Positions 20,696 to 64,000 of a DNA stretch of 64,000 bases are shown piece by piece. The stretch lies in NCBI RefSeq assembly GCF_003790525.1, contig NZ_CP033635.1; one strand, given 5' to 3'. This DNA is from Escherichia coli. GTDB taxonomy: Bacteria > Pseudomonadota > Gammaproteobacteria > Enterobacterales > Enterobacteriaceae. The number at the start of each line of letters is the position of its first letter. Position 1 is the stretch's first letter. The translations under genes and the position numbers were made by a program. A model generated the notes under the pieces. It worked only from the letters and a program-made list of their open reading frames with translations, did no database searches and was not told where the DNA came from.

Positions 20696-20708
20696 AACCG
20701 CCTCCTGG

Positions 20709-23230: not shown

Positions 23231-23232
23231 TC

Positions 23233-25175: not shown

Positions 25176-25185
25176 GGGCGCAATC

Positions 25186-26790: not shown

Positions 26791-26891
26791 TTAACCAGCC
26801 GCCTGACGCTGTTTTCAGGCAATCACTAATAACGACTCACTCCGGTAATATCCCGGAGTGCATTCATCTGCACCCTAAAAACGAGGTTTAT

Positions 26892-28166
26892 ATGTCCAGA
26901 AATAATAAACAGTGGTTGGGTTTGCCACTGCATCTGATATGGGGATATATCGCCATCGCAGTATTTATGACTGGTGATGGTTTCGAACTCGCATTCTTAT
27001 CGCACTATATTAAATCGTTAGGCTTCACACCTGCGGAAGCCTCTTTTGCCTTTACGCTCTACGGCCTGGCGGCTGCCCTTTCCGCCTGGGTTTCTGGGGT
27101 AGTAGCGGAAATCATCACGCCGCAAAAAACCATGCTGATTGGTTTTGTCCTATGGTGCGTATTCCATGTTCTGTTTCTGGTCTTTGGATTAGGACAGGCA
27201 AACTATGGGTTAATCCTGCTGTTTTACGGGATTCGTGGTTTAGCGTATCCGCTATTTCTCTACTCATTTATCGTCGTTATTATTCATAACGTGCGTAGCG
27301 AAAATTCCAGTTCTGCTCTGGGTTGGTACTGGGCGGTATATTCAGTAGGGATCGGTGTTGCTGGCAGTTATATTCCCAGTTTTACGATACCGATTATGGG
27401 TGAAATGGGAACCTTATGGCTGGCACTGGCGTTCTGCTTTGCTGGCGGTGTCATTGCCATGATCTCCTTGCGTCATGTTAAAACGCCTGGACATATGCAT
27501 AATTTAACTCCCCGTGAGAAGTTTGCAGAATTAAGTCGGGCAGTAACTTTACTTTATACCAACCGCAATATTTTTCTCTCCAGTATTGTGCGCATTATAA
27601 ATACCTTATCGTTATTCGGTTTTGCGGTCATTATGCCAATGATGTTTGTGGATGAACTGGGATTCACCACCTCTGAATGGTTGCAGGTCTGGGCGGCATT
27701 TTTCTTTACCACTATTTTCTCTAATATTTTTTGGGGGATTGTGGCAGAAAAAATGGGCTGGATGCGTGTTATTCGCTGGTTTGGTTGCCTCGGGATGGCA
27801 GCATCAAGTTTAGCGTTTTACTACATGCCGCAATACTTTGGTCACAACTACTGGATGGCAATGATTCCGGCGATTGCTCTGGGAACTTTTGTTGCTGCAT
27901 TTGTGCCGATGGCCGCTGTCTTCCCGGCACTGGAACCAAAACACAAAGGTGCTGCAATCTCGGTTTACAACCTCTCTGCGGGTATGTCTAACTTCCTGGC
28001 TCCGGCAATTGCCGTGGTGTTATTACCGTGGTTTAGCACTATCGGTGTGGTCATTGCCTATACAGCATTGTATCTATTGGCCTTTGTCCTTTGCGCATTC
28101 ATTCGCGTTGAGCAGCCAGGATTCAGTTCTGCGCCAGTGACTGAGAAGGCATTGAATATCTCCTGA
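26892..28166 (+). CDS. rtlT: MFS pentitol transporter, ribitol operon (424 aa)
   Basis: Paralog of atlT (MSRNNKQWLGLPLHLIWGYIAIAVF...). Confidence 0.85.
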   Translation: MSRNNKQWLGLPLHLIWGYIAIAVFMTGDGFELAFLSHYIKSLGFTPAEASFAFTLYGLAAALSAWVSGVVAEIITPQKTMLIGFVLWCVFHVLFLVFGLGQANYGLILLFYGIRGLAYPLFLYSFIVVIIHNVRSENSSSALGWYWAVYSVGIGVAGSYIPSFTIPIMGEMGTLWLALAFCFAGGVIAMISLRHVKTPGHMHNLTPREKFAELSRAVTLLYTNRNIFLSSIVRIINTLSLFGFAVIMPMMFVDELGFTTSEWLQVWAAFFFTTIFSNIFWGIVAEKMGWMRVIRWFGCLGMAASSLAFYYMPQYFGHNYWMAMIPAIALGTFVAAFVPMAAVFPALEPKHKGAAISVYNLSAGMSNFLAPAIAVVLLPWFSTIGVVIAYTALYLLAFVLCAFIRVEQPGFSSAPVTEKALNIS

Positions 28167-28187
28167 AAAACGAAACGCATCAGGCAC

Positions 28188-28215
28188 TCATCCTCTCCCT
28201 CATGGGAGAGGATGA
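28188..28215. terminator. Perfect 12-bp stem / 4-nt loop hairpin between convergent rtlT and fbaB
   Basis: TCATCCTCTCCC-TCAT-GGGAGAGGATGA followed by TTT on the plus strand. Confidence 0.5.
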
Positions 28216-28222
28216 TTTCACA

Positions 28223-29275
28223 TCAGGCAATAGTGACTTTGTTATCGAGATAAACGTCCTGCACGGCGTTAATCAGTTTCACGCCGTCAGCCATCGATTT
28301 CTTAAATGCTTTCCGCCCCAGAATCAGCCCCATTCCGCCTGCGCGTTTGTTGATAACCGCAGTACGCACTGCATCGCTGAGGTCAGTTTCACCGCCCGCA
28401 GCACCGCCGGAGTTTATCAACCCAGCCCGACCCATATAGCAGTTAGCTAACTGATAACGCACCAGATCAATCGGGTTTTCGCTGGTCAATTTGCTGTAAA
28501 CACGATCGTCGGTGTAACCGTAATTAATTGCTTTATAGCCGCCGTTATTTTCCGCCATTTTTTGTTTGACGATATCTGCACCGATGGTTGCCGCCAGATG
28601 GTTTGCCTGACCGGTCAGGTCGGCGGAAACATGGTAATCAACGCCATCTTTCTTAAAGGCGGAGTTACGCAAATAGGCCCACAGCACTGTCACCATACCC
28701 AGCTCGTGCGCACGTTCAAAAGCCGCAGAAATTTCTTCAATCTGGCGACGTGACTCTTCCGAGCCAAAATAGATAGTCGCACCAACCGCAACCGCGCCCA
28801 TGTTGAACGCCTGCTCCACGCTGGCATACAGCGTTTGATCGTAGGTATTCGGGTAACTTAGCGTCTCGTTGTGATTAAGTTTGACGAGGAATGGAATGCG
28901 ATGCGCATAACGCCGCGATACCGACGCCAGCACGCCGTAAGTTGACGCCACACAGTTACAGCCCGCTTCGATCGCCAGTTCAACAATGTTTTTCGGGTCA
29001 AAGTAGAGCGGGTTAGCAGCAAATGAAGCTCCGGCAGAGTGCTCAACGCCCTGGTCAACCGGCAGAATAGAAAGATATCCTGTGCCAGCCAGACGCCCGG
29101 TGTTGTACAACGTCTGCATATTACGTAACACCGCTGGCGGGCGATTATTGTCAATCATTACGCGGTCTACGTAGTCATGTCCGGGGAGATAAAGCTGGTC
29201 AGAAGGAATTGTCATACAACGGTGCTGTAAAAGGTTGTCGGCGTCTTTGCCAAGCAACTGCGCAATATCTGTCAT
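28223..29275 (-). CDS. fbaB: Class I fructose-bisphosphate aldolase FbaB (350 aa)
   Basis: ORF 28223-29347 trimmed to [20 protein letters not shown]..., the FbaB N-terminus as remembered. Confidence 0.9.
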
Positions 29276-29531
29276 TACTATGCTCCCGTAAATTCCGATT
29301 GGATATCGGCTATGGATTGTCCTGGCCCGCCTTTTGCGGGCAATCATAATCCTGGTCGTTACGGGCGAGTTTTTCCATCTTTTGGATGTTTTTTCAGCGT
29401 TTTCTGTTGGCTCGATTCATCAGAAAAAATGTTAGCGCGGTCAAGTTTTCACCGCAAAGGTATTTAAAAGGTATTATTAAGTGGTATTGTCATCGCGTAC
29501 CTTACATTACCTGTCATGAAGGAATTAAAAG

Positions 29532-45011: not shown

Positions 45012-47045
45012 ATGACTCAAGTCGCGAAGAAAATTCTGGTGACGTGCGCACTGCCGTACGCTAACGGCTCAATCCACCTCGGCCATATGCTGGAGCACAT
45101 CCAGGCTGATGTCTGGGTCCGTTACCAGCGAATGCGCGGCCACGAGGTCAACTTCATCTGCGCCGACGATGCCCACGGTACACCGATCATGCTGAAAGCT
45201 CAGCAGCTTGGTATCACCCCGGAGCAGATGATTGGCGAAATGAGTCAGGAGCATCAGACTGATTTCGCAGGCTTTAACATCAGCTATGACAACTATCACT
45301 CGACGCACAGCGAAGAGAACCGCCAGTTGTCAGAACTTATCTACTCTCGCCTGAAAGAAAACGGTTTTATTAAAAACCGCACCATCTCTCAGCTGTACGA
45401 TCCGGAAAAAGGCATGTTCCTGCCGGACCGTTTTGTGAAAGGCACCTGCCCGAAATGTAAATCCCCGGATCAATACGGCGATAACTGCGAAGTCTGCGGC
45501 GCGACCTACAGCCCGACTGAACTGATCGAGCCGAAATCGGTGGTTTCTGGCGCTACGCCGGTAATGCGTGATTCTGAACACTTCTTCTTTGATCTGCCCT
45601 CTTTCAGCGAAATGTTGCAGGCATGGACCCGCAGCGGTGCGTTGCAGGAGCAGGTGGCAAATAAAATGCAGGAGTGGTTTGAATCTGGCCTGCAACAGTG
45701 GGATATCTCCCGCGACGCCCCTTACTTCGGTTTTGAAATTCCGAACGCGCCGGGCAAATATTTCTACGTCTGGCTGGACGCACCGATTGGCTACATGGGT
45801 TCTTTCAAGAATCTGTGCGACAAGCGCGGCGACAGCGTAAGCTTCGATGAATACTGGAAGAAAGACTCCACCGCCGAGCTGTACCACTTCATCGGTAAAG
45901 ATATTGTTTACTTCCACAGCCTGTTCTGGCCTGCCATGCTGGAAGGCAGCAACTTCCGCAAGCCGTCCAACCTGTTTGTTCATGGCTATGTGACGGTGAA
46001 CGGCGCAAAGATGTCCAAGTCTCGCGGCACCTTTATTAAAGCCAGCACCTGGCTGAATCATTTTGACGCAGACAGCCTGCGTTACTACTACACTGCGAAA
46101 CTCTCTTCGCGCATTGATGATATCGATCTCAACCTGGAAGATTTCGTTCAGCGTGTGAATGCCGATATCGTTAACAAAGTGGTTAACCTGGCCTCCCGTA
46201 ATGCGGGCTTTATCAACAAGCGTTTTGACGGCGTGCTGGCAAGCGAACTGGCTGACCCGCAGTTGTACAAAACCTTCACTGATGCCGCTGAAGTGATTGG
46301 TGAAGCGTGGGAAAGCCGTGAATTTGGTAAAGCCGTGCGCGAAATCATGGCGCTGGCTGATCTGGCTAACCGCTATGTCGATGAACAGGCTCCGTGGGTG
46401 GTGGCGAAACAGGAAGGCCGCGATGCCGACCTGCAGGCAATTTGCTCAATGGGCATCAACCTGTTCCGCGTGCTGATGACTTACCTGAAGCCGGTACTGC
46501 CGAAACTGACCGAGCGTGCAGAAGCATTCCTCAATACGGAACTGACCTGGGATGGTATCCAGCAACCGCTGCTGGGCCACAAAGTGAATCCGTTCAAGGC
46601 GCTGTATAACCGCATCGATATGAGGCAGGTTGAAGCACTGGTGGAAGCCTCTAAAGAAGAAGTAAAAGCCGCTGCCGCGCCGGTAACTGGCCCGCTGGCA
46701 GATGATCCGATTCAGGAAACCATCACCTTTGACGACTTCGCTAAAGTTGACCTGCGCGTGGCGCTGATTGAAAACGCAGAGTTTGTTGAAGGTTCTGACA
46801 AACTGCTGCGCCTGACGCTGGATCTCGGCGGTGAAAAACGCAATGTCTTCTCCGGTATTCGTTCTGCTTACCCGGATCCGCAGGCACTGATTGGTCGTCA
46901 CACCATTATGGTGGCTAACCTGGCACCACGTAAAATGCGCTTCGGTATCTCTGAAGGCATGGTGATGGCTGCCGGTCCTGGCGGGAAAGATATTTTCCTG
47001 CTAAGCCCGGATGCCGGTGCTAAACCGGGTCATCAGGTGAAATAA
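45012..47045 (+). CDS. metG: Methionyl-tRNA synthetase MetG (677 aa)
   Basis: [29 protein letters not shown]... with KMSKS motif and zinc knuckles (CPKC...CEVC). Confidence 0.95.
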
Positions 47046-47054
47046 TCCCCCTTC

Positions 47055-47086
47055 AAGGCGCTGCATCGACAGCGCCTTTTCTTTAT
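47055..47086 (+). terminator. Intrinsic terminator of metG
   Basis: AAGGCGCTG-CATCGA-CAGCGCCTT followed by TTTCTTTAT. Confidence 0.75.
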
Positions 47087-48715
47087 AAATTCCTAAAGTT
47101 GTTTTCTTGCGATTTTGTCTCTCTCTAACCCGCATAAATACTGGTAGCATCTGCATTCAACTGGATAAAATTACAGGGATGCAGAATGAGACACTTTATC
47201 TATCAGGACGAAAAATCACATAAATTCAGGGCAGTTGAGCAACAGGGAAACGAGTTGCATATCAGTTGGGGAAAAGTTGGCACCAAAGGGCAAAGCCAGA
47301 TAAAAAGTTTTTCAGATGCTGCGGCAGCGGCAAAAGCGGAGCTTAAGCTGATTGCGGAGAAGGTGAAGAAGGGGTATGTGGAGCAAGCGAAGGATAATTC
47401 TTTGCAACCTTCCCAAACGGTAACGGGCTCTCTCAAGGTAGCGGACTTATCCACCATTATTCAGGAACAACCCTCTTTCGTAGCAGAAACCCGTGCGCCT
47501 GACAAAAATACAGATGCTGTTTTACCGTGGCTGGCGAAAGATATTGCTGTCGTTTTTCCGCCCGAAGTTGTACACACCACGTTAAGTCATCGCCGCTTTC
47601 CCGGAGTTCCTGTTCAGCAAGCAGACAAATTGCCCCAATTACGTCGCTTAGCCTGTAGTGTGTCGCAACGGGATAATAAAACAGCCACATTTGACTTCAG
47701 CGCCTGTTCTTTAGAATGGCAAAACACCGTCGCCCAGGCGATCAGTCAGATCGACGGCCTGAAAACAACACAGTTACCATCACCAGTAATGGCTGTACTC
47801 ACGGCACTTGAAATGAAATGCACAAGATATAAAGTGCGTGAGGATGTTATGGATCAGATCGTCCAGGAAGGCGGTCTGGAATATGCTACTGATGTAATAA
47901 TACACCTTCAACAGATTGATATTGAATGGGATTATGCGAATAATGTCATTATTATTCTGCCGTCTGGCATTGCACCTAGCTACTTGGAGCAATATTCCAG
48001 ATTTGAATGACGCCTACGTAAACATTTATCACTGACGGAAGAGTCTCTCTGGCAAAAATGTGCACAAAAACTTATTGCCGCAATTCCACATATTCCAGAA
48101 TGGCGGCAACCATTAATTGCTTTGTTATTACCCGAAAAACCAGAAATTGCACATGAAATTGCCCAGCGTCTACTGGGGCAAAAAAAATTACCCTCGCTTG
48201 AGTGGTTAAAAATAGTGGCGACTGATGAGCACATTCTTGCCTCATTAGAAAAATATCACGAACCATATGCCATTTTTGATGATTACTATTGTGGTGCGAT
48301 ATGGTCAGCCACCGTATTACAGGAGCAAGGTGTTGCAGCCCTGCCCCGATTTGCTCCCTATGCCGCAAGTGACTACTGCGCCGATGTGTTGCGTCATATC
48401 AATCATCCGTTCGCATTGACACTGCTTATACGTGTAGCCGGGCAAACTAAACGCTGTCACGATCGGATGACGAAAGCCATTGCTGCGTTCCCACATGCAG
48501 CAATGGCGGCACTGACGGAACTTCTTGGGCAAAAAGAAGAGAACAGTTGGCGCATTATGCTAATGACAATGCTTATCTCACAACCAGCACTGGCAGAACA
48601 GGTCATTCCCTGGCTCTCGACACCCGCAGTTGCCGTACTGAAATCATGCCAGCAACAACTGACACAGCCCTCAAACCATGCCAGCGCCGATCTACTGCCA
48701 GCCGTAGTAGTCTCC

Positions 48716-50054
48716 CATAAGCGCTAACTTAAGGGTTGTGGTATTACGCCTGATATGATTTAACGTGCCGATGAATTACTCTCACGATAACTGGTCAGCA
48801 ATTCTGGCCCATATTGGTAAGCCCGAAGAACTGGATACTTCGGCACGTAATGCCGGGGCTCTAACCCGCCGCCGCGAAATTCGTGATGCTGCAACTCTGC
48901 TACGTCTGGGGCTGGCTTACGGCCCCGGGGGGATGTCATTACGTGAAGTCACTGCATGGGCTCAGCTCCATGACGTTGCAACATTATCTGACGTGGCTCT
49001 CCTGAAGCGGCTGCGGAATGCCGCCGACTGGTTTGGCATACTTGCCGCACAAACACTTGCTGTACGCGCCGCAGTTACGGGTTGTACAAGCGGAAAGAGA
49101 TTGCGTCTTGTCGATGGAACAGCAATCAGTGCGCCCGGGGGCGGCAGCGCTGAATGGCGACTACATATGGGATATGATCCTCATACCTGTCAGTTCACTG
49201 ATTTTGAGCTAACCGACAGCAGAGACGCTGAACGGCTGGACCGATTTGCGCAAACGGCAGACGAGATACGCATTGCTGACCGGGGATTCGGTTCGCGTCC
49301 CGAATGTATCCGCTCACTTGCTTTTGGAGAAGCTGATTATATCGTCCGGGTTCACTGGCGAGGATTGCGCTGGTTAACTGCAGAAGGAATGCGCTTTGAC
49401 ATGATGGGTTTTCTGCGCGGGCTGGATTGCGGTAAGAACGGTGAAACCACTGTAATGATAGGCAATTCAGGTAATAAAAAAGCCGGAGCTCCCTTTCCGG
49501 CACGTCTCATTGCCGTATCACTTCCTCCCGAAAAAGCATTAATCAGTAAAACCCGACTGCTCAGCGAGAATCGTCGAAAAGGACGAGTAGTTCAGGCGGA
49601 AACGCTGGAAGCAGCGGGCCATGTGCTATTGCTAACATCATTACCGGAAGATGAATATTCAGCAGAGCAAGTGGCTGATTGTTACCGTCTGCGATGGCAA
49701 ATTGAACTGGCTTTTAAGCGGCTCAAAAGTTTGCTGCACCTGGATGCTTTGCGTGCAAAGGAACCTGAACTCGCGAAAGCGTGGATATTTGCTAATCTAC
49801 TCGCCGCATTTTTAATTGACGACATAATCCAGCCATCGCTGGATTTCCCCCCCAGAAGTGCCGGATCCGAAAAGAAGAACTAACTCGTTGTGGAGAATAA
49901 CAAAAATGGTCATCTGGAGCTTACAGGTGGCCATTCGTGGGACAGTATCCCTGACAGCCTACAAAACGCAATTGAAGAACGCGAGGCATCGTCTTAACGA
50001 GGCACCGAGGCGTCGCATTCTTCAGATGGTTCAACCCTTAAGTTAGCGCTTATG
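48716..50054 (+). mobile_element. IS186 (IS4 family), about 1339 bp, with perfect 23-bp terminal inverted repeats and 10-bp target-site duplication
   Basis: Left end CATAAGCGCTAACTTAAGGGTTG (48716-48738), right end CAACCCTTAAGTTAGCGCTTATG (50032-50054); direct repeats AGTAGTCTCC at 48706-48715 and 50055-50064. Confidence 0.9.
48771..49883 (+). CDS. IS186 transposase (DDE, IS4 family; about 370 aa)
   Basis: MNYSHDNWSAILAHIGKPEELDTSARNAGALTRRREIRDAATLLRLGLAYGPGG..., the IS186 transposase as remembered; the ORF track starts two codons earlier at GTG 48765. Confidence 0.85.
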   Translation: MNYSHDNWSAILAHIGKPEELDTSARNAGALTRRREIRDAATLLRLGLAYGPGGMSLREVTAWAQLHDVATLSDVALLKRLRNAADWFGILAAQTLAVRAAVTGCTSGKRLRLVDGTAISAPGGGSAEWRLHMGYDPHTCQFTDFELTDSRDAERLDRFAQTADEIRIADRGFGSRPECIRSLAFGEADYIVRVHWRGLRWLTAEGMRFDMMGFLRGLDCGKNGETTVMIGNSGNKKAGAPFPARLIAVSLPPEKALISKTRLLSENRRKGRVVQAETLEAAGHVLLLTSLPEDEYSAEQVADCYRLRWQIELAFKRLKSLLHLDALRAKEPELAKAWIFANLLAAFLIDDIIQPSLDFPPRSAGSEKKN

Positions 50055-52338
50055 AGTAGTCTCCCCTCCCTGGCTTTCGAAAAAGAAAAAATCGCCGATT
50101 CCGGTGCTGGATTTAGCGCCATTAGGCATTGAGCCAATCTGTTATCTGACAGAAGAAATCAGTAATCAACTTTTGGCGAAATATATCTGGTATTCAAAAC
50201 ACATCACGGTTAGCCATGAAGAAAGTACTACCAACCTGTTGGCAAGGATGGGTTTTCAACGACGGATCGCTGGTACATATATTAAAGCTCCCGAAGCGGT
50301 AGTTGAGGCATGGCTAAATGAAGATTATTCAACCTTACTAAGTGAATTTAAGGTGTTTCATTCACCTACCGGGCATTATTGGCAGTTGGGGATTTTGACA
50401 ACATTGCCGCTGGAGAAAGCAGTAAAAGCATGGAATGCCCTTACCCTATCTCCACATACCGATACCGAATACTCCATGTTACATTTTGGACTCAAAGGGT
50501 TACCTGGGTTAGTAAACTCACTTGCACGCTATCCACAAGAAGCCTTGCCCATCACGAATTACTTCGCAGCGAGTGAGCTGGCTCCTGCCGTCGCCCGTGC
50601 CTTCAACAAACTGAAAACGCTACGCGAAAACGCCCGTAGCTGGCTGTTGAAATACCCGGAACATGCCCTTACCGGCCTGCTGCCTGCGGCGCTCGGCAAA
50701 GCCGGTGAAGCACAGGATAACGCCCGCGCTGCCTTGCGTATGCTTACCGAAAACGGTCATCAGCCATTACTGCAAGAAATCGCCCGACGTTATAACCAGC
50801 CGGAAGTAACCGATGCGGTGAACGCTCTGCTTGCGCTCGATCCCTTAGATAATCACCCGACAAAAATCCCCACTCTTCCGGCCTTTTATCAGCCATCGCT
50901 CTGGACGCGCCCGGTATTAAAAGCAAATGCCCAATCACTGCCAGATAGCGCCCTCCTCCACCTCGGTGAAATGCTCCGCTTCCCTCAGGAAGAGGCTCTG
51001 TATCCGGGATTATTGCAGGTGAAAGACGTCTGTTCCGCCGACTCACTGGCGGGATTTGCCTGGGATCTGTTTACCGCCTGGCAGACCGCTGGCGCGCCGT
51101 CGAAAGAGAGTTGGGCGTTCACTGCGTTAGGCGTTCTCGGTAACGATGACACCGCCCGCAAACTGACGCCATTAATACGCGCCTGGCCTGGTGAATCCCA
51201 GCATAAACGCGCCACCGTTGGGTTGGATATTCTCGCTGCTATCGGTAGTGATATCGCCCTTATGCAGCTTAACGGCATCGCCCAGAAACTGAAATTCAAA
51301 GCATTACAGGAGCGGGCAAAAGAAAAAATTGCCGACATTGCCGAGAGCCGCGAACTCACGGTGGCGGAGCTTGAAGATCGGTTAGCACCGGATCTCGGTC
51401 TGGATGATAACGGTTCGCTGCTGCTGGATTTTGGCCCACGGCAGTTCACCGTCAGCTTTGATGAAACCTTAAAACCGTTTGTGCGTGATGTTTCCGGCAG
51501 CCGCCTGAAAGACCTGCCCAAACCGAACAAAAGCGATGATGAAACGCGGGCGAACGATGCGGTTAACCGCTACAAATTGCTGAAAAAAGATGCGCGTACC
51601 ATCGCCGCCCAGCAGGTAGCAAGGCTGGAATCCGCCATGTGCCTGCGCCGCCGCTGGTCGCTGGAAAACTTCCAGCTCTTCCTGGTTGAGCATCCGCTGG
51701 TTCGTCACTTAACCCGCCGTCTGATTTGGGGCGTTTATAGCGCCGAAAACCAGCTACTGGCTTGCTTTCGCGTAGCAGAAGATAACAGCTCCAGCACCGC
51801 TGACGATGATCTTTTCACCCTGCCGGAAGGCGATATCTCTATCGGCACTCCTCACGTTCTGGAAATATCACCAACGGATGCTGCCGCCTTTGGTCAGCTT
51901 TTTGCCGACTACGAACTGCTACCACCGTTCCGCCAGCTCGACCGTAACAGCTACGCCCTGACAGAAGCCGAGCGCAATGCCAGTGAACTGACCCGCTGGG
52001 CAGGCAGAAAATGCCCGAGTGGTCGGGTCATGGGGCTGGCGAATAAAGGCTGGATAAAGGGCGAACCACAGGATGGAGGCTGGATCGGATGGATGATCAA
52101 ACCTTTGGGTCGCTGGTCGTTAATCATGGAAATCGATGAAGGCTTTGCGGTAGGCATGTCGCCAGCCGAACTCAGCGCTGAGCAGCTCTTAAGCAAGCTG
52201 TGGCTATGGGAAGGCAAAGCAGAAAGATATGGCTGGGGGAGTAATTCAACACAGGAAGCGCAGTTCTCCGTAATCGATGCCATCACCGCCAGCGAGCTAA
52301 TTAACGATATTGAAGCCCTGTTTGAATAAGGAAAGAGC

Positions 52339-55300
52339 ATGGACAAGGAATTACCGTGGCTGGCGGATAACGCCCAACTGGAACTGAAATATAAAAAAGG
52401 CAAAACGCCGCTCAGTCATCGTCGCTGGCCGGGCGAACCAGTGTCCGTTATCACTGGAAGTCTCATCCAGACATTGGGTGATGAATTGCTACAAAAAGCT
52501 GAGAAGAAAAAAAACATTGTCTGGCGTTATGAGAATTTTTCACTGGAGTGGCAGTCCGCCATCACGCAGGCCATCAACTTGATCGGCGAACACAAACCCT
52601 CAATCCCGGCCCGGACAATGGCGGCGCTAGCCTGTATCGCGCAAAATGACAGCCAACAGTTGCTCGACGAAATCGTCCAACAAGAGGGGCTGGAATATGC
52701 GACTGAGGTGGTGATTGCACGCCAGTTTATTGCGCGGTGTTATGAGAGTGATCCTCTGGTAGTGACATTGCAGTATCAGGACGAGGATTATGGCTATGGT
52801 TATCGCTCAGAAACCTATAACGAATTCGATCTCCGACTGCGTAAGCATCTCTCTCTGGCAGAGGAAAGCTGCTGGCAGCGTTGCGCCGACAAACTCATTG
52901 CCGCACTACCAGGAATAACCAAAGTTCGCCGCCCTTTTATTGCGCTGATCCTCCCGGAAAAACCAGAAATAGCCAATGAGTTGGTAGGCCTTGAATGCCC
53001 GCGAACTCATTTTCATTCTAAGGAGTGGTTAAAAGTTGTTGCTAATGACCCCACAGCGGTGAGAAAACTCGAACACTACTGGAGCCAGGATATATTTAGC
53101 GATCGAGAAGCCAGCTACATGTCGCATGAAAACCACTTCGGCTACGCGGCCTGCGCCGCCCTTTTGCGCGAACAAGGACTGGCAGCCATTCCGCGCCTCG
53201 CGATGTATGCCCATAAAGAAGATTGCGGCAGTCTGCTGGTACAAATTAACCATCCGCAAGTCATCCGCACCTTGCTACTGGTGGCTGATAAAAACAAACC
53301 CAGCCTGCAACGTGTAGCTAAATACCATAAAAACTTCCCCCATGCGACGCTCGCCGCACTGGCAGAACTGCTGGCGTTAACAGAACCACCAGCCCGCCCT
53401 GGTTATCCAATCATCGAAGACAAAAAGCTGCCTGCACAGCAAAAAGCACGCGATGAATACTGGCGTACGCTGTTACAAACGCTGATGGCATCGCAGCCAC
53501 AACTGGCAGCAGAAGTGATGCCGTGGTTAAGTACTCAACCCCAGTCAGTGCTGAAGAGTTATTTATCGGCACCGCCCAAACCGGTTATTGATGGCACCGA
53601 TAACAGCAATCTGCCAGAAATCCTCGTTTCACCACCGTGGCGTAGTAAGAAAAAAATGACAGCTCCACGTCTTGATTTGGCACCGCTCGAATTAACTCCG
53701 CAAGTTTACTGGCAACCAGGCGAACAAGAGAGGCTTGCCGCCACTGAGCCTGCCCGTTATTTCAGCACGGAATCTCTTGCGCAACGCATGGAACAAAAAA
53801 GTGGACGAGTTGTATTACAGGAACTGGGTTTTGGGGATGATGTATGGCTGTTTCTGAATTATATACTCCCCGGAAAACTGGATGCTGCACGCAATTCACT
53901 CTTGTTCAGTGGCATTACTACCAGGGGCGGGTTGAAGAGATCCTGAATGGCTGGAACTCCCCGGAAGCACAATTAGCAGAACAGGCGCTCCGCAGCGGTC
54001 ACATAGAAGCGTTAATTAACATATGGGAAAATGACAACTACTCACATTATCGTCCGGAAAAGAGTGTCTGGAACCTGTATTTATTGGCACAGTTGCCGCG
54101 TGAGATGGCTTTGACCTTCTGGCTGCGTATCAATGAGAAAAAGCATCTGTTCGCGGGTGAGGACTATTTTCTCAGTATCCTCGGATTGGATGCGCTACCA
54201 GGTCTGCTGTTGGCTTTTTCACATCGTCCAAAAGAAACATTTCCGTTAATTTTAAATTTTGGCGCAACAGAACTGGCGCTGCCTGTTGCCCACGTCTGGC
54301 GACGTTTCGCGGCGCAGCGTGATCTGGCTCGCCAGTGGATTTTACAATGGCCGGAACATACGGCTAGTGCACTTATCCCTCTTGTCTTTACCAAACCCAG
54401 CGATAATAGCGAAGCCGCATTACTTGCCCTGCGTTTACTGTACGAACAGGGACATGGCGAATTGCTACAAACCGTGGCAAACCGCTGGCAGCGTACAGAT
54501 GTATGGTCTGCCCTGGAGCAGTTGCTTAAACAGGGTCCAATGGACATTTACCCGGCACGCATTCCAAAAGCCCCTGATTTCTGGCATCCGCAAATGTGGT
54601 CCAGGCCGCGCCTTATCACTAATAATCAAACTGTTACCAATGACGCTCTGGAAATTATCGGCGAAATGCTGCGCTTTACCCAGGGGGGACGTTTTTATAG
54701 CGGGCTGGAACAACTGAAAACGTTCTGCCAGCCACAAACGCTGGCAGCTTTTGCCTGGGATCTCTTCACTGCGTGGCAACAAGCTGGTGCCCCCGCAAAA
54801 GACAACTGGGCATTTCTGGCGTTAAGTCTCTTTGGTGACGAAAGCACGGCACGGGATCTGACGACACAGATCCTCGCCTGGCCACAAGAAGGCAAATCTG
54901 CCCGTGCTGTCAGCGGCCTGAACATCCTTACCCTGATGAATAATGATATGGCGCTGATACAGCTGCATCATATATCGCAACGGGCTAAATCCCGCCCCTT
55001 ACGTGATAACGCGGCGGAATTTCTTCAGGTGGTCGCAGAAAATCGCGGGCTAAGCCAGGAAGAGCTAGCGGACAGATTAGTCCCAACCCTGGGCCTTGAT
55101 GATCCGCAGGCGTTGAGTTTTGATTTTGGTCCCCGGCAGTTTACCGTTCGCTTCGATGAAAATCTCAACCCGGTTATCTTTGATCAGCAAAACGTTCGCC
55201 AGAAAAGCGTTCCCCGTTTGCGCGCCGATGACGATCAACTGAAAGCGCCCGAGGCACTGGCCCGACTAAAAGGGCTAAAAAAAGATGCTACTCAGGTGAG

Positions 55301-55970
55301 CAAAAACCTGCTCCCGCGTCTTGAAACGGCCCTACGTACCACCCGACGCTGGTCGCTGGCAGATTTTCATTCTCTGTTTGTTAATCATCCCTTTACCCGT
55401 CTGGTTACCCAGCGATTAATATGGGGGGTTTATCCGGCAAATGAACCGCGTTGTTTACTCAAAGCCTTTCGTGTGGCCGCAGAGGGGGAGTTCTGCAATG
55501 CGCAAGATGAGCCAATTGACCTGCCTGCGGACGCTCTGATTGGCATTGCCCACCCGTTAGAAATGACAGCAGAAATGCGCAGTGAATTTGCACAGCTTTT
55601 TGCCGATTACGAAATTATGCCGCCTTTTCGCCAGTTGTCGCGCCGCACGGTGCTGCTCACACCTGACGAGTCAACCAGTAACAGCCTGACTCGCTGGGAA
55701 GGTAAATCCGCTACCGTTGGGCAACTTATGGGAATGCGATACAAAGGCTGGGAGTCAGGCTATGAGGACGCATTTGTCTATAACCTGGGTGAGTACCGGC
55801 TGGTCCTTAAGTTTTCACCCGGTTTTAACCACTACAATGTTGATAGCAAAGCGCTAATGAGCTTCCGTTCTCTTCGAGTGTACCGTGACAATAAATCCGT
55901 CACTTTTGCCGAACTTGATGTGTTTGATTTGAGTGAGGCGTTAAGCGCACCTGACGTCATTTTCCATTAA
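52339..55970 (+). pseudogene. yehI: yehI-like DUF4132 large protein gene with an apparent -1 frameshift inside 53844-53946
   Basis: Two overlapping ORFs (52339-53946 in frame 1, 53844-55970 in frame 0); total span 3632 nt is one nt short of an intact 1210-codon gene; both halves are colinear with the molR paralog. Confidence 0.7.
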
Positions 55971-56030
55971 AACACAGCGGGCAGTGATGCAACTGCCCGT
56001 TATCAACACGACTTACCAGCGGGGAAAGCG

Positions 56031-56348
56031 ATGATCGTGCAAAAAGAGCTGGTTGCTATTTACGATTATGAGGTCCCTGTACCTGAAGATCCGTTTTCCT
56101 TCAGACTTGAGATCCATAAATGCTCTGAATTATTTACAGGTTCCGTCTATCGACTGGAGCGATTCCGGCTACGTCCAACATTTCATCAACGTGATCGAGA
56201 AGATGCTGACCCGCTAATAAATGATGCGTTGATTTATATAAGAGATGAGTGTATTGATGAGCGGAAATTACGAGGTGAATCACCTGAAACTGTAATAGCA
56301 ATTTTTAATCGTGAACTACAGAATATATTCAACCAAGAAATAGAATAA
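56031..56348 (+). CDS. yehK: Small uncharacterized protein YehK (105 aa)
   Basis: 105-aa ORF with no recognizable domain, followed by an intrinsic terminator. Confidence 0.7.
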   Translation: MIVQKELVAIYDYEVPVPEDPFSFRLEIHKCSELFTGSVYRLERFRLRPTFHQRDREDADPLINDALIYIRDECIDERKLRGESPETVIAIFNRELQNIFNQEIE

Positions 56349-56516
56349 TATACTCTAAATAATTCAAATTGGTCCGATCCGGCGCAACGTCCCAATGGCC
56401 TGGATTATAAATCTCATTATCTTAATTGCAACGGGGTCCAGCCGTGGTTATAATTCGTTCGTTGGAACACGATGTTGCACAGGCTGTGGTGTTAGGCCTG
56501 AAAATAGTAAATAAAA

Positions 56517-56546
56517 GAACCTGCCTCACCAGCAGGTTTTTTTATT
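56517..56546 (+). terminator. Intrinsic terminator downstream of yehK
   Basis: CCTGC-CTCACCA-GCAGG followed by TTTTTTT. Confidence 0.75.
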
Positions 56547-56654
56547 TACTGTGATCTGCTTTCCAGATATTTTTCGCTCAAACAACTAATGCGCCAAACA
56601 TTTATTGCGCGTAAAATATCGTTTATTTCATTAATACATTTCAGGGATGAATAT

Positions 56655-57743
56655 ATGTCACCGCAGAATAATCATCTGCAGCGTCCGCCTGCTGCTGTGT
56701 TATACGCCGATGAACTGGCAAAATTAAAACAAAATGATAACGCACCTTGCCCGCCCGGTTGGCAGTTAAGTTTGCCTGCGGCCCGTGCTTTTATCCTTGG
56801 CGACGAAGCGCAAAATATCAGCCGTAAAGTGGTGATTAGCCCCTCCGCTGTCGAACGTATGTTAGTCACTCTTGCTACCGGCCGCGGTTTGATGTTGGTG
56901 GGGGAACCGGGTACCGCAAAATCTCTTCTTTCTGAATTACTGGCAACCGCTATTAGCGGCGATGCCGGGTTAACCATCCAGGGCGGGGCATCTACCACCG
57001 AAGATCAAATCAAGTATGGCTGGAACTACGCCCTGCTTATCAATCATGGTCCGTCAACGGAAGCGCTGGTCCCTGCCCCGCTTTATCAGGAAATGCGCGA
57101 CGGCAAAATCGTCCGTTTCGAAGAGATAACGCGTACACCGCTGGAAGTGCAGGACTGTCTGTTAGGTATGCTTTCTGACAGGGTGATGACGGTGCCGGAA
57201 CTCACTGGTGAAGCCAGTCAGCTCTATGCGCGAGAAGGCTTTAATATTATTGCCACTGCCAATACCCGCGATCGCGGCGTCAATGAAATGAGTGCTGCGC
57301 TAAAGCGTCGCTTCGATTTTGAAACGGTTTTTCCGATTATGGATTTCGCCCAGGAGTTGGAACTGGTCGCCAGTGCTTCGGCGCGTTTGCTGGCCCATAG
57401 CGGTATTCCGCATAAAGTGCCTGACGCGGTACTGGAATTACTGGTCCGCACCTTCCGCGATCTGCGTGCCAACGGCGAAAAGAAAACGTCAATGGATACA
57501 CTGACAGCGATTATGTCCACCGCTGAAGCCGTGAACGTGGCCCATGCTGTGGGCGTCCGCGCCTGGTTTTTAGCGAATCGCGCGGGGGAGCCTGCCGACC
57601 TGGTGGAATGTATTGCCGGAACCATCGTCAAAGATAACGAAGAAGATCGCGCGCGTCTGCGCCGTTACTTCGAACAGCGTGTCGCCACACATAAAGAAGC
57701 TCACTGGCAGGCTTATTATCAAGCCCGCCACCGCCTGCCGTGA
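56655..57743 (+). CDS. yehL: MoxR-like AAA+ ATPase YehL (362 aa)
   Basis: ORF 56589-57743 trimmed to ATG at 56655 (MSPQNNHLQRP...); Walker A GEPGTAKS, Walker B-like FNIIATAN. Confidence 0.85.
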   Translation: MSPQNNHLQRPPAAVLYADELAKLKQNDNAPCPPGWQLSLPAARAFILGDEAQNISRKVVISPSAVERMLVTLATGRGLMLVGEPGTAKSLLSELLATAISGDAGLTIQGGASTTEDQIKYGWNYALLINHGPSTEALVPAPLYQEMRDGKIVRFEEITRTPLEVQDCLLGMLSDRVMTVPELTGEASQLYAREGFNIIATANTRDRGVNEMSAALKRRFDFETVFPIMDFAQELELVASASARLLAHSGIPHKVPDAVLELLVRTFRDLRANGEKKTSMDTLTAIMSTAEAVNVAHAVGVRAWFLANRAGEPADLVECIAGTIVKDNEEDRARLRRYFEQRVATHKEAHWQAYYQARHRLP

Positions 57744-57753
57744 GGAAAGATGC

Positions 57754-60033
57754 ATGAGCGAGCCGTTAATTGTCGGCATCCGGCATCATAGTCCGGCCTG
57801 CGCCCGGCTGGTGAAATCGTTAATCGAAAGCCAGCGGCCACGATACGTGTTGATTGAAGGCCCGGCTGATTTTAATGACCGGGTAGACGAACTGTTTTTA
57901 GCCCACCAGCTTCCGGTAGCTATTTACAGTTATTGCCAGTATCAGGACGGTGCAGCCCCCGGGCGTGGTGCCTGGACGCCATTTGCTGAATTTTCGCCGG
58001 AGTGGCAGGCGCTACAAGCCGCACGTCGCATTCAGGCACAAACTTACTTCATCGATTTGCCTTGCTGGGCGCAGAGTGAAGAAGAGGACGATTCGCCTGA
58101 TACGCAAGATGAAAGCCAGGCCTTACTGCTGCGTGCCACCCGCATGGATAACAGCGATACCCTGTGGGATCACTTGTTCGAAGATGAAAGCCAGCAAACT
58201 GCATTACCCTCTGCGCTGGCGCACTATTTTGCCCAACTGCGGGGCGACGCCTCCGGCGATGCGCTCAATCGTCAGCGCGAAGCCTTTATGGCCCGCTGGA
58301 TTGGATGGGCGATGCAGCAAAATAATGGCGACGTGTTAGTTGTCTGCGGTGGCTGGCACGCTCCGGCACTGGCAAAGATGTGGCGCGAATGCCCTCAGAA
58401 AATTAACAAGCCAGAATTGCCCTCGCTGGCAGATGCCGTTACAGGTTGTTATCTCACACCCTACAGTGAAAAGCGCCTTGATGTGCTGGCAGGATACCTT
58501 TCAGGAATGCCTGCCCCGGTATGGCAAAACTGGTGCTGGCAGTGGGGCTTGCAGAAGGCCGGTGAACAACTGCTAAAAACTATCCTTACCCGTTTGCGCC
58601 AGCACAAATTGCCCGCTTCTACCGCGGATATGGCTGCCGCTCATCTGCATGCGATGGCGCTGGCACAGTTGCGCGGTCATACACTACCGTTACGCACTGA
58701 CTGGCTGGATGCCATAGCAGGCTCGCTGATTAAAGAAGCCCTGAACGCGCCGTTGCCGTGGAGCTATCGCGGCGTTATTCATCCCGATACCGATCCGATT
58801 CTGCTAACGTTGATAGACACATTAGCGGGTGACGGATTCGGTAAACTTGCCCCTTCTACGCCACAACCGCCTCTGCCAAAAGATGTCACCTGCGAACTGG
58901 AACGTACCGCAATCTCCCTTCCGGCGGAGCTTACCTTAAATCGCTTTACCCCCGATGGGCTGGCGCAAAGTCAGGTGTTACATCGGCTGGCAATACTGGA
59001 GATCCCTGGGATTGTACGCCAGCAGGGAAGTACACTGACACTTGCAGGCAACGGTGAAGAACGCTGGAAATTAACCCGCCCGCTTAGCCAGCATGCGGCA
59101 TTGATTGAGGCCGCCTGTTTTGGTGCCACACTCCAGGAAGCCGCACGCAATAAATTAGAAGCCGATATGCTGGACGCGGGCGGAATCGGCAGTATCACCA
59201 CATGTCTTAGCCAGGCGGCGTTAGCGGGTCTGGCGTCCTTCAGTCAACAATTACTGGAGCAACTCACACTATTAATCGCCCAGGAAAATCAATTTGCCGA
59301 AATGGGCCAGGCGCTGGAAGTGCTTTATGCCTTATGGCGGCTGGATGAAATTAGCGGTATGCAAGGCGCGCAGATATTACAAACGACGTTATGCGCGACT
59401 ATCGATCGCACGCTGTGGCTGTGTGAATCTAACGGCAGACCGGATGAAAAGGAGTTTCACGCTCACCTGCATAGCTGGCAAGCGCTTTGCCATATTCTGC
59501 GCGATCTACATAGCGGCGTTAATTTACCCGGCGTTTCTCTTTCTGCGGCGGTAGCCTTACTGGAGCGACGCAGTCAGGCAATTCATGCCCCGGCGCTGGA
59601 TCGCGGCGCGGCTCTTGGCGCACTAATGCGTCTGGAACATCCCAACGCCAGTGCCGAAGCGGCGCTGACGATGCTGGCGCAGTTATCCCCGGCACAATCT
59701 GGTGAGGCGCTGCACGGTTTGCTGGCGCTGGCCCGCCATCAACTGGCCTGTCAGCCGGCATTTATCGCCGGTTTCAGCAGTCATTTAAATCAACTGAGTG
59801 AAGCCGATTTTATTAACGCCCTGCCCGATTTACGCGCGGCGATGGCCTGGCTACCACCACTAGAACGCGGGACGCTGGCGCATCAGGTGCTTGAGCATTA
59901 TCAACTGGCGCAACTTCCCGTTTCGGCGCTGCAAATGCCGTTGCATTGTCCACCACAGGCCATTGCACATCATCAACAACTCGAACAGCAGGCACTGGCA
60001 TCGCTGCAAAACTGGGGAGTTTTCCATGTCTGA
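57754..60033 (+). CDS. yehM: Large uncharacterized protein YehM (759 aa)
   Basis: ORF 57613-60033 trimmed to ATG at 57754 after GAGGAAAG, 10 bp after the yehL stop; no motif I can name. Confidence 0.8.
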   Translation: MSEPLIVGIRHHSPACARLVKSLIESQRPRYVLIEGPADFNDRVDELFLAHQLPVAIYSYCQYQDGAAPGRGAWTPFAEFSPEWQALQAARRIQAQTYFIDLPCWAQSEEEDDSPDTQDESQALLLRATRMDNSDTLWDHLFEDESQQTALPSALAHYFAQLRGDASGDALNRQREAFMARWIGWAMQQNNGDVLVVCGGWHAPALAKMWRECPQKINKPELPSLADAVTGCYLTPYSEKRLDVLAGYLSGMPAPVWQNWCWQWGLQKAGEQLLKTILTRLRQHKLPASTADMAAAHLHAMALAQLRGHTLPLRTDWLDAIAGSLIKEALNAPLPWSYRGVIHPDTDPILLTLIDTLAGDGFGKLAPSTPQPPLPKDVTCELERTAISLPAELTLNRFTPDGLAQSQVLHRLAILEIPGIVRQQGSTLTLAGNGEERWKLTRPLSQHAALIEAACFGATLQEAARNKLEADMLDAGGIGSITTCLSQAALAGLASFSQQLLEQLTLLIAQENQFAEMGQALEVLYALWRLDEISGMQGAQILQTTLCATIDRTLWLCESNGRPDEKEFHAHLHSWQALCHILRDLHSGVNLPGVSLSAAVALLERRSQAIHAPALDRGAALGALMRLEHPNASAEAALTMLAQLSPAQSGEALHGLLALARHQLACQPAFIAGFSSHLNQLSEADFINALPDLRAAMAWLPPLERGTLAHQVLEHYQLAQLPVSALQMPLHCPPQAIAHHQQLEQQALASLQNWGVFHV

Positions 60034-61162
60034 ACTGAACGATCTTCTGACCACCCGTGAGCTACAACGCTGGCGATTAATTCTTGGCGAAGCGGCAGAA
60101 ACGACGCTTTGTGGGCTGGATGACAACGCCCGGCAGATAGACCACGCGCTGGAGTGGCTGTATGGGCGCGATCCTGAACGGCTCCAGCGTGGTGAACGTT
60201 CCGGTGGATTAGGTGGCTCAAATCTCACCACCCCTGAGTGGATCAACAGTATTCACACGCTGTTTCCGCAGCAGGTGATTGAGCGGCTGGAAAGCGATGC
60301 CGTGCTGCGCTACGGCATTGAAGATGTGGTGACGAATCTCGACGTGCTGGAACGTATGCAGCCTTCTGAAAGCCTGCTACGCGCTGTTTTGCACACCAAA
60401 CATCTGATGAACCCCGAAGTACTGGCTGCCGCCCGCCGGATAGTGTGCCAGGTTGTTGAAGAAATTATGGCTCGACTGGCAAAGGAAGTTCGTCAGGCTT
60501 TTTCTGGTGTCCGCGATCGCCGTCGCCGTTCATTTATTCCACTGGCGCGAAACTTTGATTTCAAAAGTACTCTGCGCGCCAACCTGCAACACTGGCACCC
60601 GCAACACGGCAAGTTGTATATCGAATCCCCCCGCTTTAACAGCCGCATTAAACGCCAAAGCGAACAATGGCAACTGGTCTTACTGGTTGATCAAAGCGGA
60701 TCGATGGTTGACTCGGTGATCCACTCTGCGGTGATGGCGGCCTGTTTATGGCAGTTACCCGGCATTCGTACCCATCTGGTGGCGTTTGACACCAGCGTCG
60801 TTGATCTCACGGCAGACGTTGCTGATCCGGTAGAGTTATTAATGAAAGTACAACTGGGCGGCGGGACCAATATCGCCAGTGCCGTGGAGTATGGTCGGCA
60901 ACTTATTGAACAACCAGCAAAAAGCGTCATTATCCTCGTGAGCGATTTCTATGAAGGGGGTTCATCATCATTGCTGACGCATCAGGTGAAAAAGTGTGTC
61001 CAGAGCGGCGTCAAAGTGCTGGGACTGGCGGCGCTCGATAGCACCGCAACACCTTGCTATGACCGCGATATGGCCCAGGCGCTGGTTAATGTCGGCGCAC
61101 AAATAGCTGCCATGACACCGGGCGAACTGGCGGCCTGGCTTGCGGAGAATCTTCAGTCATGA
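60026..61162 (+). CDS. yehP: vWA-domain protein YehP (378 aa)
   Basis: ORF 59891-61162 trimmed to ATG at 60026 (MSELNDLLTT...), overlapping the yehM stop by 8 nt; MIDAS motif LVDQSGSM. Confidence 0.85.
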   Translation: MSELNDLLTTRELQRWRLILGEAAETTLCGLDDNARQIDHALEWLYGRDPERLQRGERSGGLGGSNLTTPEWINSIHTLFPQQVIERLESDAVLRYGIEDVVTNLDVLERMQPSESLLRAVLHTKHLMNPEVLAAARRIVCQVVEEIMARLAKEVRQAFSGVRDRRRRSFIPLARNFDFKSTLRANLQHWHPQHGKLYIESPRFNSRIKRQSEQWQLVLLVDQSGSMVDSVIHSAVMAACLWQLPGIRTHLVAFDTSVVDLTADVADPVELLMKVQLGGGTNIASAVEYGRQLIEQPAKSVIILVSDFYEGGSSSLLTHQVKKCVQSGVKVLGLAALDSTATPCYDRDMAQALVNVGAQIAAMTPGELAAWLAENLQS

Positions 61163-63159
61163 ATTCACTACGTCCGGAATTATTAGAACTGACGCCGCAG
61201 GCCCTGACGGCGTTAAGCAATGCCGGTTTTGTTAAACGCAGTCTTAAGGAACTGGAAAATGGCAACGTCCCGGAAATCAGCCATAAGAACGGCGCTTTAA
61301 TCGCCACCTTCAGTGACGGTGTCCGTACCCAGCTGGCGAACGGTCAGGCACTGAAAGAGGCTCAATGCAGCTGCGGGGCCAACGGTATGTGCCGTCATCG
61401 CGTGATGCTGGTGTTAAGTTATCAACGACTTTGTGCCACCACTCAGTCTACGGAAAAAGAAGAAGAGTGGGATCCGGCAATCTGGCTGGAAGAACTGGCT
61501 ACCCTTCCCGATGCTACCCGCAAACGCGCACAGGCGCTGGTCGCTAAAGGCATCACCATTGAGTTGTTCTGTGCGCCGGGTGAAATTCCCTCTGCCCGCT
61601 TACCGATGAGCGATGTGCGTTTTTATTCCCGCAGCAGTATTCGTTTCGCCCGTTGTGATTGTATTGAAGGCACACTTTGCGAACATGTCGTACTGGCGGT
61701 ACAGGCCTTCGTCGAGGCCAAAGCGCAGCAAGTAGAATTTAACCATTTAATCTGGCAGATGCGCAGCGAACACGTCACATCATCTGACGATCCGTTTGCC
61801 AGCGAAGAAGGCAACGCGTGTCGTCAATATGTTCAGCAATTAAGCCAGACATTATGGCTTGGCGGCATCAGCCAGCCGCTCATCCATTACGAGGCAGCAT
61901 TCAACCGCGCATTGCAGGCGGCAGAGACCTGCAACTGGCGCTGGGTGAGTGAATCGCTACGGCAACTGCGCGCCAGCGTTGATGCCTTCCACGCCCGCGC
62001 CAGCCACTATAATGCCGGAGAATGCTTACATCAGCTTGCGGCATTAAACAGTCGATTAAATTGCGCACAAGAGATGGCCCGGCGCGACAGTATTGGTGAA
62101 GTTCCTCCTGTGCCGTGGCGCACGGTCGTTGGCTCTGGCATTGCCGGAGAAGCAAAGCTTGATCATCTGCGGCTGGTGTCTTTAGGTATGCGTTGCTGGC
62201 AGGATATTGAGCATTATGGTTTACGCATCTGGTTTACCGATCCCGACACCGGCAGTATTTTGCACCTTTCGCGCAGTTGGCCGCGAAGTGAACAGGAAAA
62301 CTCACCGGCAGCTACGCGTCGGCTGTTTAGTTTTCAGGCTGGCGCACTGGCGGGCGGGCAAATTGTTTCACAAGCAGCAAAACGCAGTGCCGATGGCGAG
62401 CTGCTGTTAGCTACCCGCAACCGCTTAAGCAGCGTTGTGCCGCTGTCGCCTGATGCCTGGCAAATGTTGAGCGCGCCGTTACGCCAGCCGGGCATTGTGG
62501 CTTTGCGGGAATATTTACGCCAGCGTCCCCCCGCCTGCATACGGCCTCTTAATCAGGTCGATAACTTATTTATTCTGCCGGTCGCTGAGTGTATTTCGCT
62601 CGGTTGGGACAGCAGCCGCCAGACGCTGGATGCGCAGGTCATTAGCGGCGAAGGGGAAGATAATGTGCTGACGTTATCATTACCAGCCTCAGCCAGCGCA
62701 CCTTATGCCGTTGAACGCATGGCGGCGCTTTTGCAACAAACAGACGACCCCGTGTGTCTGGTTTCTGGCTTTGTCAGTTTTGTTGAAGGGCAATTGACAC
62801 TGGAACCACGGGTGATGATGACAAAAACCCGTGCCTGGGCGCTGGACGCAGAAACTACGCCTGTGGCACCGCTACCTTCTGCCAGCGTTTTGCCTGTGCC
62901 GTCTACTGCTCATCAGTTGCTGATACGCTGCCAGGCGTTACTTATTCAACTGCTCCATAACGGCTGGCACTATCAGGAACAGAGTGCTATTGGTCAGGCA
63001 GAGTTGCTGGCGAATGACCTCACCGCGGTGGGTTTTTATCGGCTGGCACATGTGTTGGGACAATTTCGTAATACAGAAAGCGAGGCACGGGTAGAAGCAA
63101 TGAATAACGGTGTTTTGCTTTGCGAACAATTATTCCCCATGCTTCAGCAACAAGGATGA
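61159..63159 (+). CDS. yehQ: SWIM zinc-finger-like protein YehQ (666-aa ORF)
   Basis: Start overlaps the yehP stop (ATGA); two CxC...CxH motifs (CSCGANGMCRHRV and CDCIEGTLCEHVV) typical of SWIM fingers. Confidence 0.8.
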   Translation: MNSLRPELLELTPQALTALSNAGFVKRSLKELENGNVPEISHKNGALIATFSDGVRTQLANGQALKEAQCSCGANGMCRHRVMLVLSYQRLCATTQSTEKEEEWDPAIWLEELATLPDATRKRAQALVAKGITIELFCAPGEIPSARLPMSDVRFYSRSSIRFARCDCIEGTLCEHVVLAVQAFVEAKAQQVEFNHLIWQMRSEHVTSSDDPFASEEGNACRQYVQQLSQTLWLGGISQPLIHYEAAFNRALQAAETCNWRWVSESLRQLRASVDAFHARASHYNAGECLHQLAALNSRLNCAQEMARRDSIGEVPPVPWRTVVGSGIAGEAKLDHLRLVSLGMRCWQDIEHYGLRIWFTDPDTGSILHLSRSWPRSEQENSPAATRRLFSFQAGALAGGQIVSQAAKRSADGELLLATRNRLSSVVPLSPDAWQMLSAPLRQPGIVALREYLRQRPPACIRPLNQVDNLFILPVAECISLGWDSSRQTLDAQVISGEGEDNVLTLSLPASASAPYAVERMAALLQQTDDPVCLVSGFVSFVEGQLTLEPRVMMTKTRAWALDAETTPVAPLPSASVLPVPSTAHQLLIRCQALLIQLLHNGWHYQEQSAIGQAELLANDLTAVGFYRLAHVLGQFRNTESEARVEAMNNGVLLCEQLFPMLQQQG

Positions 63160-63283
63160 AATAGTGTTTTTTACTAAGAGTTCTACTCCAGTTCCGGACT
63201 GCTCACGCCACGGTATTAGGCATATCCTATATAGCCCCTGGTGAGAGTCACCAGTTCCTTGATTAAATAAAATGGAGTTTTAC

Positions 63284-63745
63284 ATGAAGGCTTTCAATAA
63301 GCTGTTTTCCCTCGTTGTTGCATCTGTTCTGGTTTTCTCTCTTGCTGGCTGCGGTGACAAAGAAGAATCGAAGAAATTCAGCGCCAATCTGAACGGCACT
63401 GAAATTGCCATTACCTATGTCTACAAAGGTGACAAGGTGCTTAAGCAATCTTCTGAAACCAAAATTCAATTTGCCTCCATTGGTGCAACCACCAAAGAAG
63501 ATGCTGCCAAGACACTTGAGCCGTTAAGCGCCAAATACAAAAACATCGCGGGTGTTGAAGAAAAATTAACCTATACCGATACCTACGCGCAGGAAAACGT
63601 GACTATCGATATGGAAAAAGTGGATTTTAAAGCCCTGCAGGGTATTTCAGGAATCAACGTTTCTGCTGAAGATGCCAAAAAAGGTATCACTATGGCGCAA
63701 ATGGAACTGGTGATGAAAGCCGCTGGTTTTAAAGAAGTGAAATAA
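63284..63745 (+). CDS. yehR: Lipoprotein YehR (153 aa)
   Basis: ORF 63272-63745 trimmed to MKAFNKLFSLVVASVLVFSLAGC with lipobox LAGC. Confidence 0.85.
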   Translation: MKAFNKLFSLVVASVLVFSLAGCGDKEESKKFSANLNGTEIAITYVYKGDKVLKQSSETKIQFASIGATTKEDAAKTLEPLSAKYKNIAGVEEKLTYTDTYAQENVTIDMEKVDFKALQGISGINVSAEDAKKGITMAQMELVMKAAGFKEVK

Positions 63746-63749
63746 TCGG

Positions 63750-63786
63750 TTGGCGGTCATGCTCTAAACATGACCGCCAATTTTTT
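63750..63786 (+). terminator. Intrinsic terminator of yehR
   Basis: TTGGCGGTCATG-CTCTAAA-CATGACCGCCAA followed by TTTTTT; overlaps the stop of the convergent yehS ORF. Confidence 0.8.
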
Positions 63787-64000
63787 AGCCTTTTTTCACA
63801 TGCTGGCGCGCTGCCAGTCCACGCAGAAAATAACGTAAAAATTGATCGCCGCATTCGCGGAAGTTTTTATGATCCGGTGCGCGCATCATCGCTGTAATTT
63901 CCGGCATCGAAACGCGGAACTGCTGTTCGGTGAGGATAGCCAGAATGTCATCGGTTTTCAGCGAAAACGCGATGCGTAATTTTTTCAGCACGATGTTGTT
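63785..64000 (-). CDS. yehS: C-terminal part of YehS-like protein (gene continues past window end)
   Basis: Minus-strand frame open from the window edge to the stop at 63785-63787 (...LKKLRIAFSLKTDDILAILTEQQF...). Confidence 0.6.
   Translation of the reverse strand, partial: NNIVLKKLRIAFSLKTDDILAILTEQQFRVSMPEITAMMRAPDHKNFRECGDQFLRYFLRGLAARQHVKKG

Follow-up and report, generated by a model that had tools for sequence, protein, structure and literature searches.

A single-base deletion splits yehI in an Escherichia coli genome and in its close relative TUM9803

The yehI gene of Escherichia coli K-12 (b2118) and its orthologs lie between molR and yehK-yehLMPQ. Literature searches for a functional study of YehI or DUF4132 returned incidental mentions only. 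Genes that are read across two overlapping ORFs in different frames are represented in E. coli by dnaX and the IS transposases, the programmed -1 frameshift genes of this species, in which the two ORFs encode one protein. Lesions in the metG-molR-yehI segment have arisen through IS elements, frameshifts and a transposon, and they represent DUF4132 gene loss in natural lineages. In the case of the transposon, TnMB1860 was located in the "DUF4132 region" of 184 ST131 isolates, and a large ST131 sublineage (L1a) was concerned; some lineages with DUF4132 loss are epidemiologically successful (PMC9334617).

The copy of yehI described here lies in a 64,000-nt stretch of E. coli DNA, hereafter the window. 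It resembles b2118 and its orthologs in its position between molR and yehK-yehLMPQ, and intact orthologs, for example WP_000356822.1, show 100% nucleotide identity to it bar one base. It differs from them in that its frame is broken at codon 522, which leaves DUF4132 unreachable from the native start. Like the other metG-molR-yehI lesions, it represents the loss of a DUF4132 gene in a natural lineage, but the lesion is a point deletion rather than a mobile element and lies at a different position. The closest known counterpart is the yehI pseudogene of strain TUM9803, which has the same sequence, whereas TUM9803 itself lacks both the IS186 element in molR and a cluster of SNPs at window positions 60709-61371. 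The features of the window on which the analysis relied are as follows.

47186..52329, + strand: molR-like paralog (WGR + DUF4132), a pseudogene in which codon 275 (48008-48010) is a nonsense codon and IS186 has inserted
48716..50054, + strand: IS186/IS421 element of about 1.34 kb within molR, with its transposase ORF at 48765-49883
52339..55970, + strand: the full yehI pseudogene, 3632 nt long (intact gene, 3633 nt)
52339..53946, + strand: ORF1, the truncated product, with 521 native YehI residues, 14 aberrant residues and a TGA at 53944-53946
53844..53946, + strand: overlap of both frames, the second frame being open from the TGA at 53838-53840
53902..53903, + strand: mutation site, the TT remaining of the Phe522 codon TTT (CTC TTT GTT changed to CTC TTG TT)
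53904..55970, + strand: native YehI residues 523-1210, out of frame with the start codon; a 688-residue suffix and stop identical to intact YehI
55197..55751, + strand: DUF4132 (PF13569), matched by Pfam over model positions 3-179 of 179 with an i-Evalue of 2e-47
56031..63159, + strand: yehK, yehL (MoxR AAA+), yehM (DUF5682), yehP (vWA) and yehQ (SWIM), named after the PGAP annotation of TUM9803

The identity of the gene was determined by a megablast search of window positions 52300-56000 against 5,426 complete RefSeq E. coli genomes. The region was identified as yehI, annotated as "DUF4132 domain-containing protein YehI", and was found in 5,330 of these genomes. Its neighbours are metG, molR, yehK, yehL, yehM, yehP and yehQ, and its homology to YehI is full-length and colinear at the conserved molR-yehK locus, with the DUF4132 domain present. 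Only one record, TUM9803 (NZ_CP135671.1), matched the region base for base, and the next best matches were one base longer. As an intact reference, yehI of strain 203740 (NZ_CP025913.1, WP_000356822.1) was used, which measures 3633 nt, or 1210 codons and a stop, in the PGAP annotation.

The ORF list for 50000-58000 gave two plus-strand ORFs in different frames, one at 52339..53946 (535 aa) and the other at 53844..55970 (708 aa), with an overlap of 103 nt at 53844-53946. It had been proposed from the letters alone that a 1-nt deletion splits the gene, as the combined span falls one nucleotide short of an intact 1210-codon gene. Direct comparison with the yehI of strain 203740 bore out the proposal and its arithmetic and placed the missing base in codon 522. 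The single difference in the whole gene was one T missing from a T3 run in the window, and the letters at the site read CTCTTTGTT in the intact gene and CTCTTGTT in the window. Compared with its intact orthologs, the copy in the window thus has a disrupted frame and a premature stop, as in a frameshift pseudogene. Chance is not at issue, since what was found is the absence of one base from a known gene rather than a statistical pattern.

Translation of ORF1 past the lesion gave the aberrant 14-residue tail LFSGITTRGGLKRS. No Pfam match is on record for the 535-aa truncated product. When ORF2 was scanned by itself, DUF4132 was placed at its residues 452-636, which correspond approximately to residues 954-1138 of intact YehI, downstream of the frameshift. 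As the domain lies far downstream of the break, the truncated product is without DUF4132. In public assemblies, the gene callers annotated a 628-aa downstream product starting at the TTG at 54084.

The distribution of the deletion was examined using probes against the same 5,426 complete genomes. A 40-nt probe centred on the deletion, for which megablast seeding requires the deletion to be present, matched one genome only, TUM9803. With a 70-nt probe, 4,208 complete genomes matched, approximately 4,200 of which carry the intact allele, including K-12 and O145 strains; besides TUM9803, the covering genomes aligned with a one-base gap or with mismatches. Because the intact allele is present in approximately 4,200 genomes and the deletion in one of 5,426, the deletion is the derived state. 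In TUM9803, the copy (RS166_RS10185) is annotated by PGAP as a pseudogene, "DUF4132 domain-containing protein YehI, frameshifted". The yehI in the window is an ordinary lineage-specific pseudogene, and its allele is already flagged as frameshifted in the public annotation of a sister genome.

Whether TUM9803 counts as a separate witness depends on its relationship to the window. The two sequences are identical over window positions 52300-56000, deletion included. The possibility that the window is TUM9803 itself was ruled out by a full 64-kb comparison, which showed a separate, closely related genome: six SNPs over positions 1-48716, single SNPs at 56443, 57091 and 63167, a 1.34-kb insertion at 48716-50054 that is not in TUM9803, and 28 SNPs densely clustered at 60709-61371. 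As the window is distinct from TUM9803, the latter provides independent support for the allele.

The SNP cluster covers about 660 bp, namely the 3' part of yehP and the 5' part of yehQ, between nearly identical flanks, and alters three YehP and two YehQ residues. Nearly all of its SNPs were also found for locus L011, the sole carrier of the deletion compared site by site, and the mismatch totals of L007, L009 and L010 were similar. The cluster has the appearance of a small patch acquired by recombination in the genome of the window only.

Beyond the complete genomes, an exact match to the 535-aa product occurs in 66 index blocks. It is carried by 45 contigs, whose sources are NCBI assemblies, an ENA metagenome and public read sets assembled in Logan; the contig count covers exact-sequence matches only, as the cluster to which the product was assigned is heterogeneous and contains many MoxR ATPases. 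Five loci (L007-L011) were fetched, and all five carried the deletion allele at the DNA level, with the intact allele in none. The lesion was thus reproduced in independent data, comprising TUM9803 and the loci from NCBI, ENA and Logan. Since a random base-calling error at a three-base run would not recur over independent data sets, the deletion is real and inherited.

Two of the five loci showed further features of their own. L008, the ENA metagenome scaffold MUNK22-1 (6197-9991 and 7717-15771), has the yehI deletion alongside a WGR-DUF4132 molR that is intact at 1264 aa. From 50055 to 54590, deletion included, it matches the window without a difference, and from there to 58029 it diverges sharply, by 54 SNPs. 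Either the haplotype is a mosaic or the metagenome scaffold is chimeric; in L008, the deletion allele lies on a haplotype block shared with the window, within a background that is somewhat different. In L011, a second 1-nt deletion was present at its position 5253, which corresponds to window position 55277. There, an A7 run is reduced to A6, and the C-terminal ORF is split into 404 and 224 aa. This second deletion reflects either further decay or a homopolymer error of that Logan assembly.

The paralog molR, immediately upstream, is also inactive in the window. The disruption of molR that the original prediction had assumed was confirmed as nonsense codon 275 and the IS186 insertion. The nonsense codon is common to the window and TUM9803, where PGAP reports an "internal stop". 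On either side of the element in the window stands a directly repeated target duplication of 10-11 bp, AGTAGTCTCC(C), and a 100% identical copy in strain G8 is named "IS4-like element IS421 family transposase" by PGAP. The colinearity of the split gene with molR also held, as intact YehI residues 2-1163 aligned to MolR residues 110-1204 in one blastp segment at 37.5% identity. The suggestion that the strain has no intact DUF4132 paralog holds for molR and yehI, the two genes examined. In all complete genomes inspected, molR is a pseudogene, and an intact 1264-aa MolR was found in L008.

The loci L010 (GCA_022972455.1) and L011 (SRR23191208) start within the IS186 end, so the IS186::molR state of the window is common to both. 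The IS186/IS421 element in molR, at 48716-50054 in the window, lies at 8020-9358 in locus L022, and an IS186 end occurs at exactly this molR junction in 13 of the 5,426 complete genomes. Strain G8 carries the identical element at the same target site in the opposite orientation. Such an arrangement points to an IS186 hot spot that was hit independently rather than to shared ancestry. The record NZ_LR883012.1 was considered as a sharer of the insertion because it appeared to match 46000-64000 in full, but it was rejected, as its IS186/IS421 copy lies in yehL and its yehI is intact.

Based on these results, a genuine, vertically inherited 1-bp deletion has very probably inactivated yehI in a small sublineage of E. 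coli to which the genome of the window and TUM9803 belong. Replication slippage within the T3 run at codon Phe522 is the most likely origin of the deletion. From the native start, translation would yield a 535-residue protein without the C-terminal 57% of YehI, including DUF4132, its only recognised domain, and the 688 downstream codons appear to be without evident start signals of their own. A truncated product together with downstream codons of this kind would correspond to a null or near-null pseudogene. Judged from the sequence, yehI here is predicted to be functionally null, as the truncation precedes the only recognised domain, and some residual expression of the open C-terminal ORF may occur. 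The window and most carriers keep the C-terminal ORF fully open, and the deletion is therefore considered recent.

The states of molR among the carriers suggest an order of events, which recombination could blur. The yehI deletion would have come first, as L008 has an intact molR. It would have been followed by the nonsense codon in molR, the state of TUM9803, L007 and L009, and then by the entry of IS186 into molR, the state of the window, L010 and L011.

Several other explanations of the two-ORF structure were weighed against an inherited inactivating deletion. The original prediction had left room for a sequencing or assembly error, in which the genome would truly have TTT and an intact yehI, and base-calling or polishing would have removed one base. 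Among long-read errors, the commonest kind is a one-base indel in a short homopolymer, and only one of the 5,426 complete RefSeq genomes has the allele; yet the run is just three bases long, and the allele recurs in TUM9803, on 45 contigs of three source kinds, including read-set assemblies and a metagenome, and in every fetched locus. Moreover, the matching 64 kb of TUM9803 has no other gene annotated as frameshifted, and the yehK-yehQ genes of the window were checked and are open: the translations of yehK, yehL, yehM, yehP and yehQ each have no internal stops. An artefact is accordingly regarded as very improbable. It had also been proposed that finding the same two-ORF structure in other strains would speak against the frameshift. 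Other strains do share the structure, and this counts against a sequencing error, not against the frameshift itself. The least probable explanation is recoding, in which full-length YehI would be restored by transcriptional slippage or a programmed -1 ribosomal frameshift between 53841 and 53946. The 103-nt overlap would permit it, since a -1 shift anywhere there gives a nearly native protein. However, when 53841-53946 was scanned in the ORF1 frame, slippery heptamers of the form X XXY YYZ were absent, and the overlap has no homopolymer of five or more; the site itself is TT, while slippage calls for approximately seven or more A or T. Unlike dnaX and the IS transposases, which likewise have two overlapping ORFs, the split yehI has no slippery site and is a rare derived allele whose arrangement is not conserved among orthologs, the gene being a single ORF in thousands of genomes. 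The carrier L011 also has an additional frameshift downstream.

A division of YehI into two working subunits was considered as well, namely the N-terminal 521-residue part and a DUF4132 part initiated internally at the ATG at 53844 or the TTG at 54084. The C-terminal frame is fully open and keeps the complete DUF4132, and at least 45 contigs retain the allele, but such persistence is equally expected of a neutral recent mutation. Inspection by eye showed no obvious ribosome-binding site or stop-start coupling at the candidate starts. The break position is not common to the other disrupted alleles, which break at many places, and in L011 the C-terminal frame is lost too. A functional split is thus judged unlikely. 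A similarly low probability was given to the joint proposal that either the loss of molR and yehI was selected, these genes being accessory or regulatory parts of an uncharacterised MoxR-vWA module of which yehLMPQ is intact, or the split yehI works as two polypeptides. Returning to the inherited inactivating deletion, the loss of yehI is best read as neutral or nearly so and the gene as dispensable, because the molR-yehI locus decays repeatedly in E. coli. The second deletion in L011 fits relaxed constraint and decay rather than a maintained recoding signal.

Evidence of repeated decay was obtained from other yehI lesions. Among the best 30 megablast matches, insertions of IS3, IS1 and ISVsa5 were present. 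A 628-aa C-terminal YehI fragment was found in 121 index blocks, and its partners were N-terminal fragments of 505, 528, 562 or 565 aa, a pair of 80 and 412 aa, or an IS. In L012-L021, yehI is interrupted at many differing positions, and some of these assemblies may hold errors. Several BAAFY* assemblies have multiple breaks in molR and yehI, which may likewise reflect assembly error.

What the analysis adds to the existing annotation is the demonstration that the lesion is no assembly artefact and that a small sublineage of E. coli can be recognised by it. In annotation, the frameshift should stand as a real pseudogene and not be "repaired". The locus is also a further example of the dispensability of molR and yehI, the DUF4132 genes beside metG, in natural E. 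coli, where their decay is recurrent, and it provides weak circumstantial information on the DUF4132 family.

The remainder of the window yielded additional observations. A comparison of YehI, YehK, YehL and YehM with the defence models of PADLOC-DB 2.0 gave no families at E <= 0.001. At about 20000-29500, by correspondence with TUM9803 positions 2094556-2105534, a ribitol/arabitol-type sugar-alcohol cluster lies between fbaB and yegS. In both the window and TUM9803, it includes dalD, xylB, an FGGY-family pentulose kinase and RbtT/DalT transporters; in ETEC strain E1441, the gat galactitol operon occupies this position. At 1092-3351, tandem repeats that are approximately 90% identical to one another correspond to the three ibs genes for type I toxins in the TUM9803 annotation.
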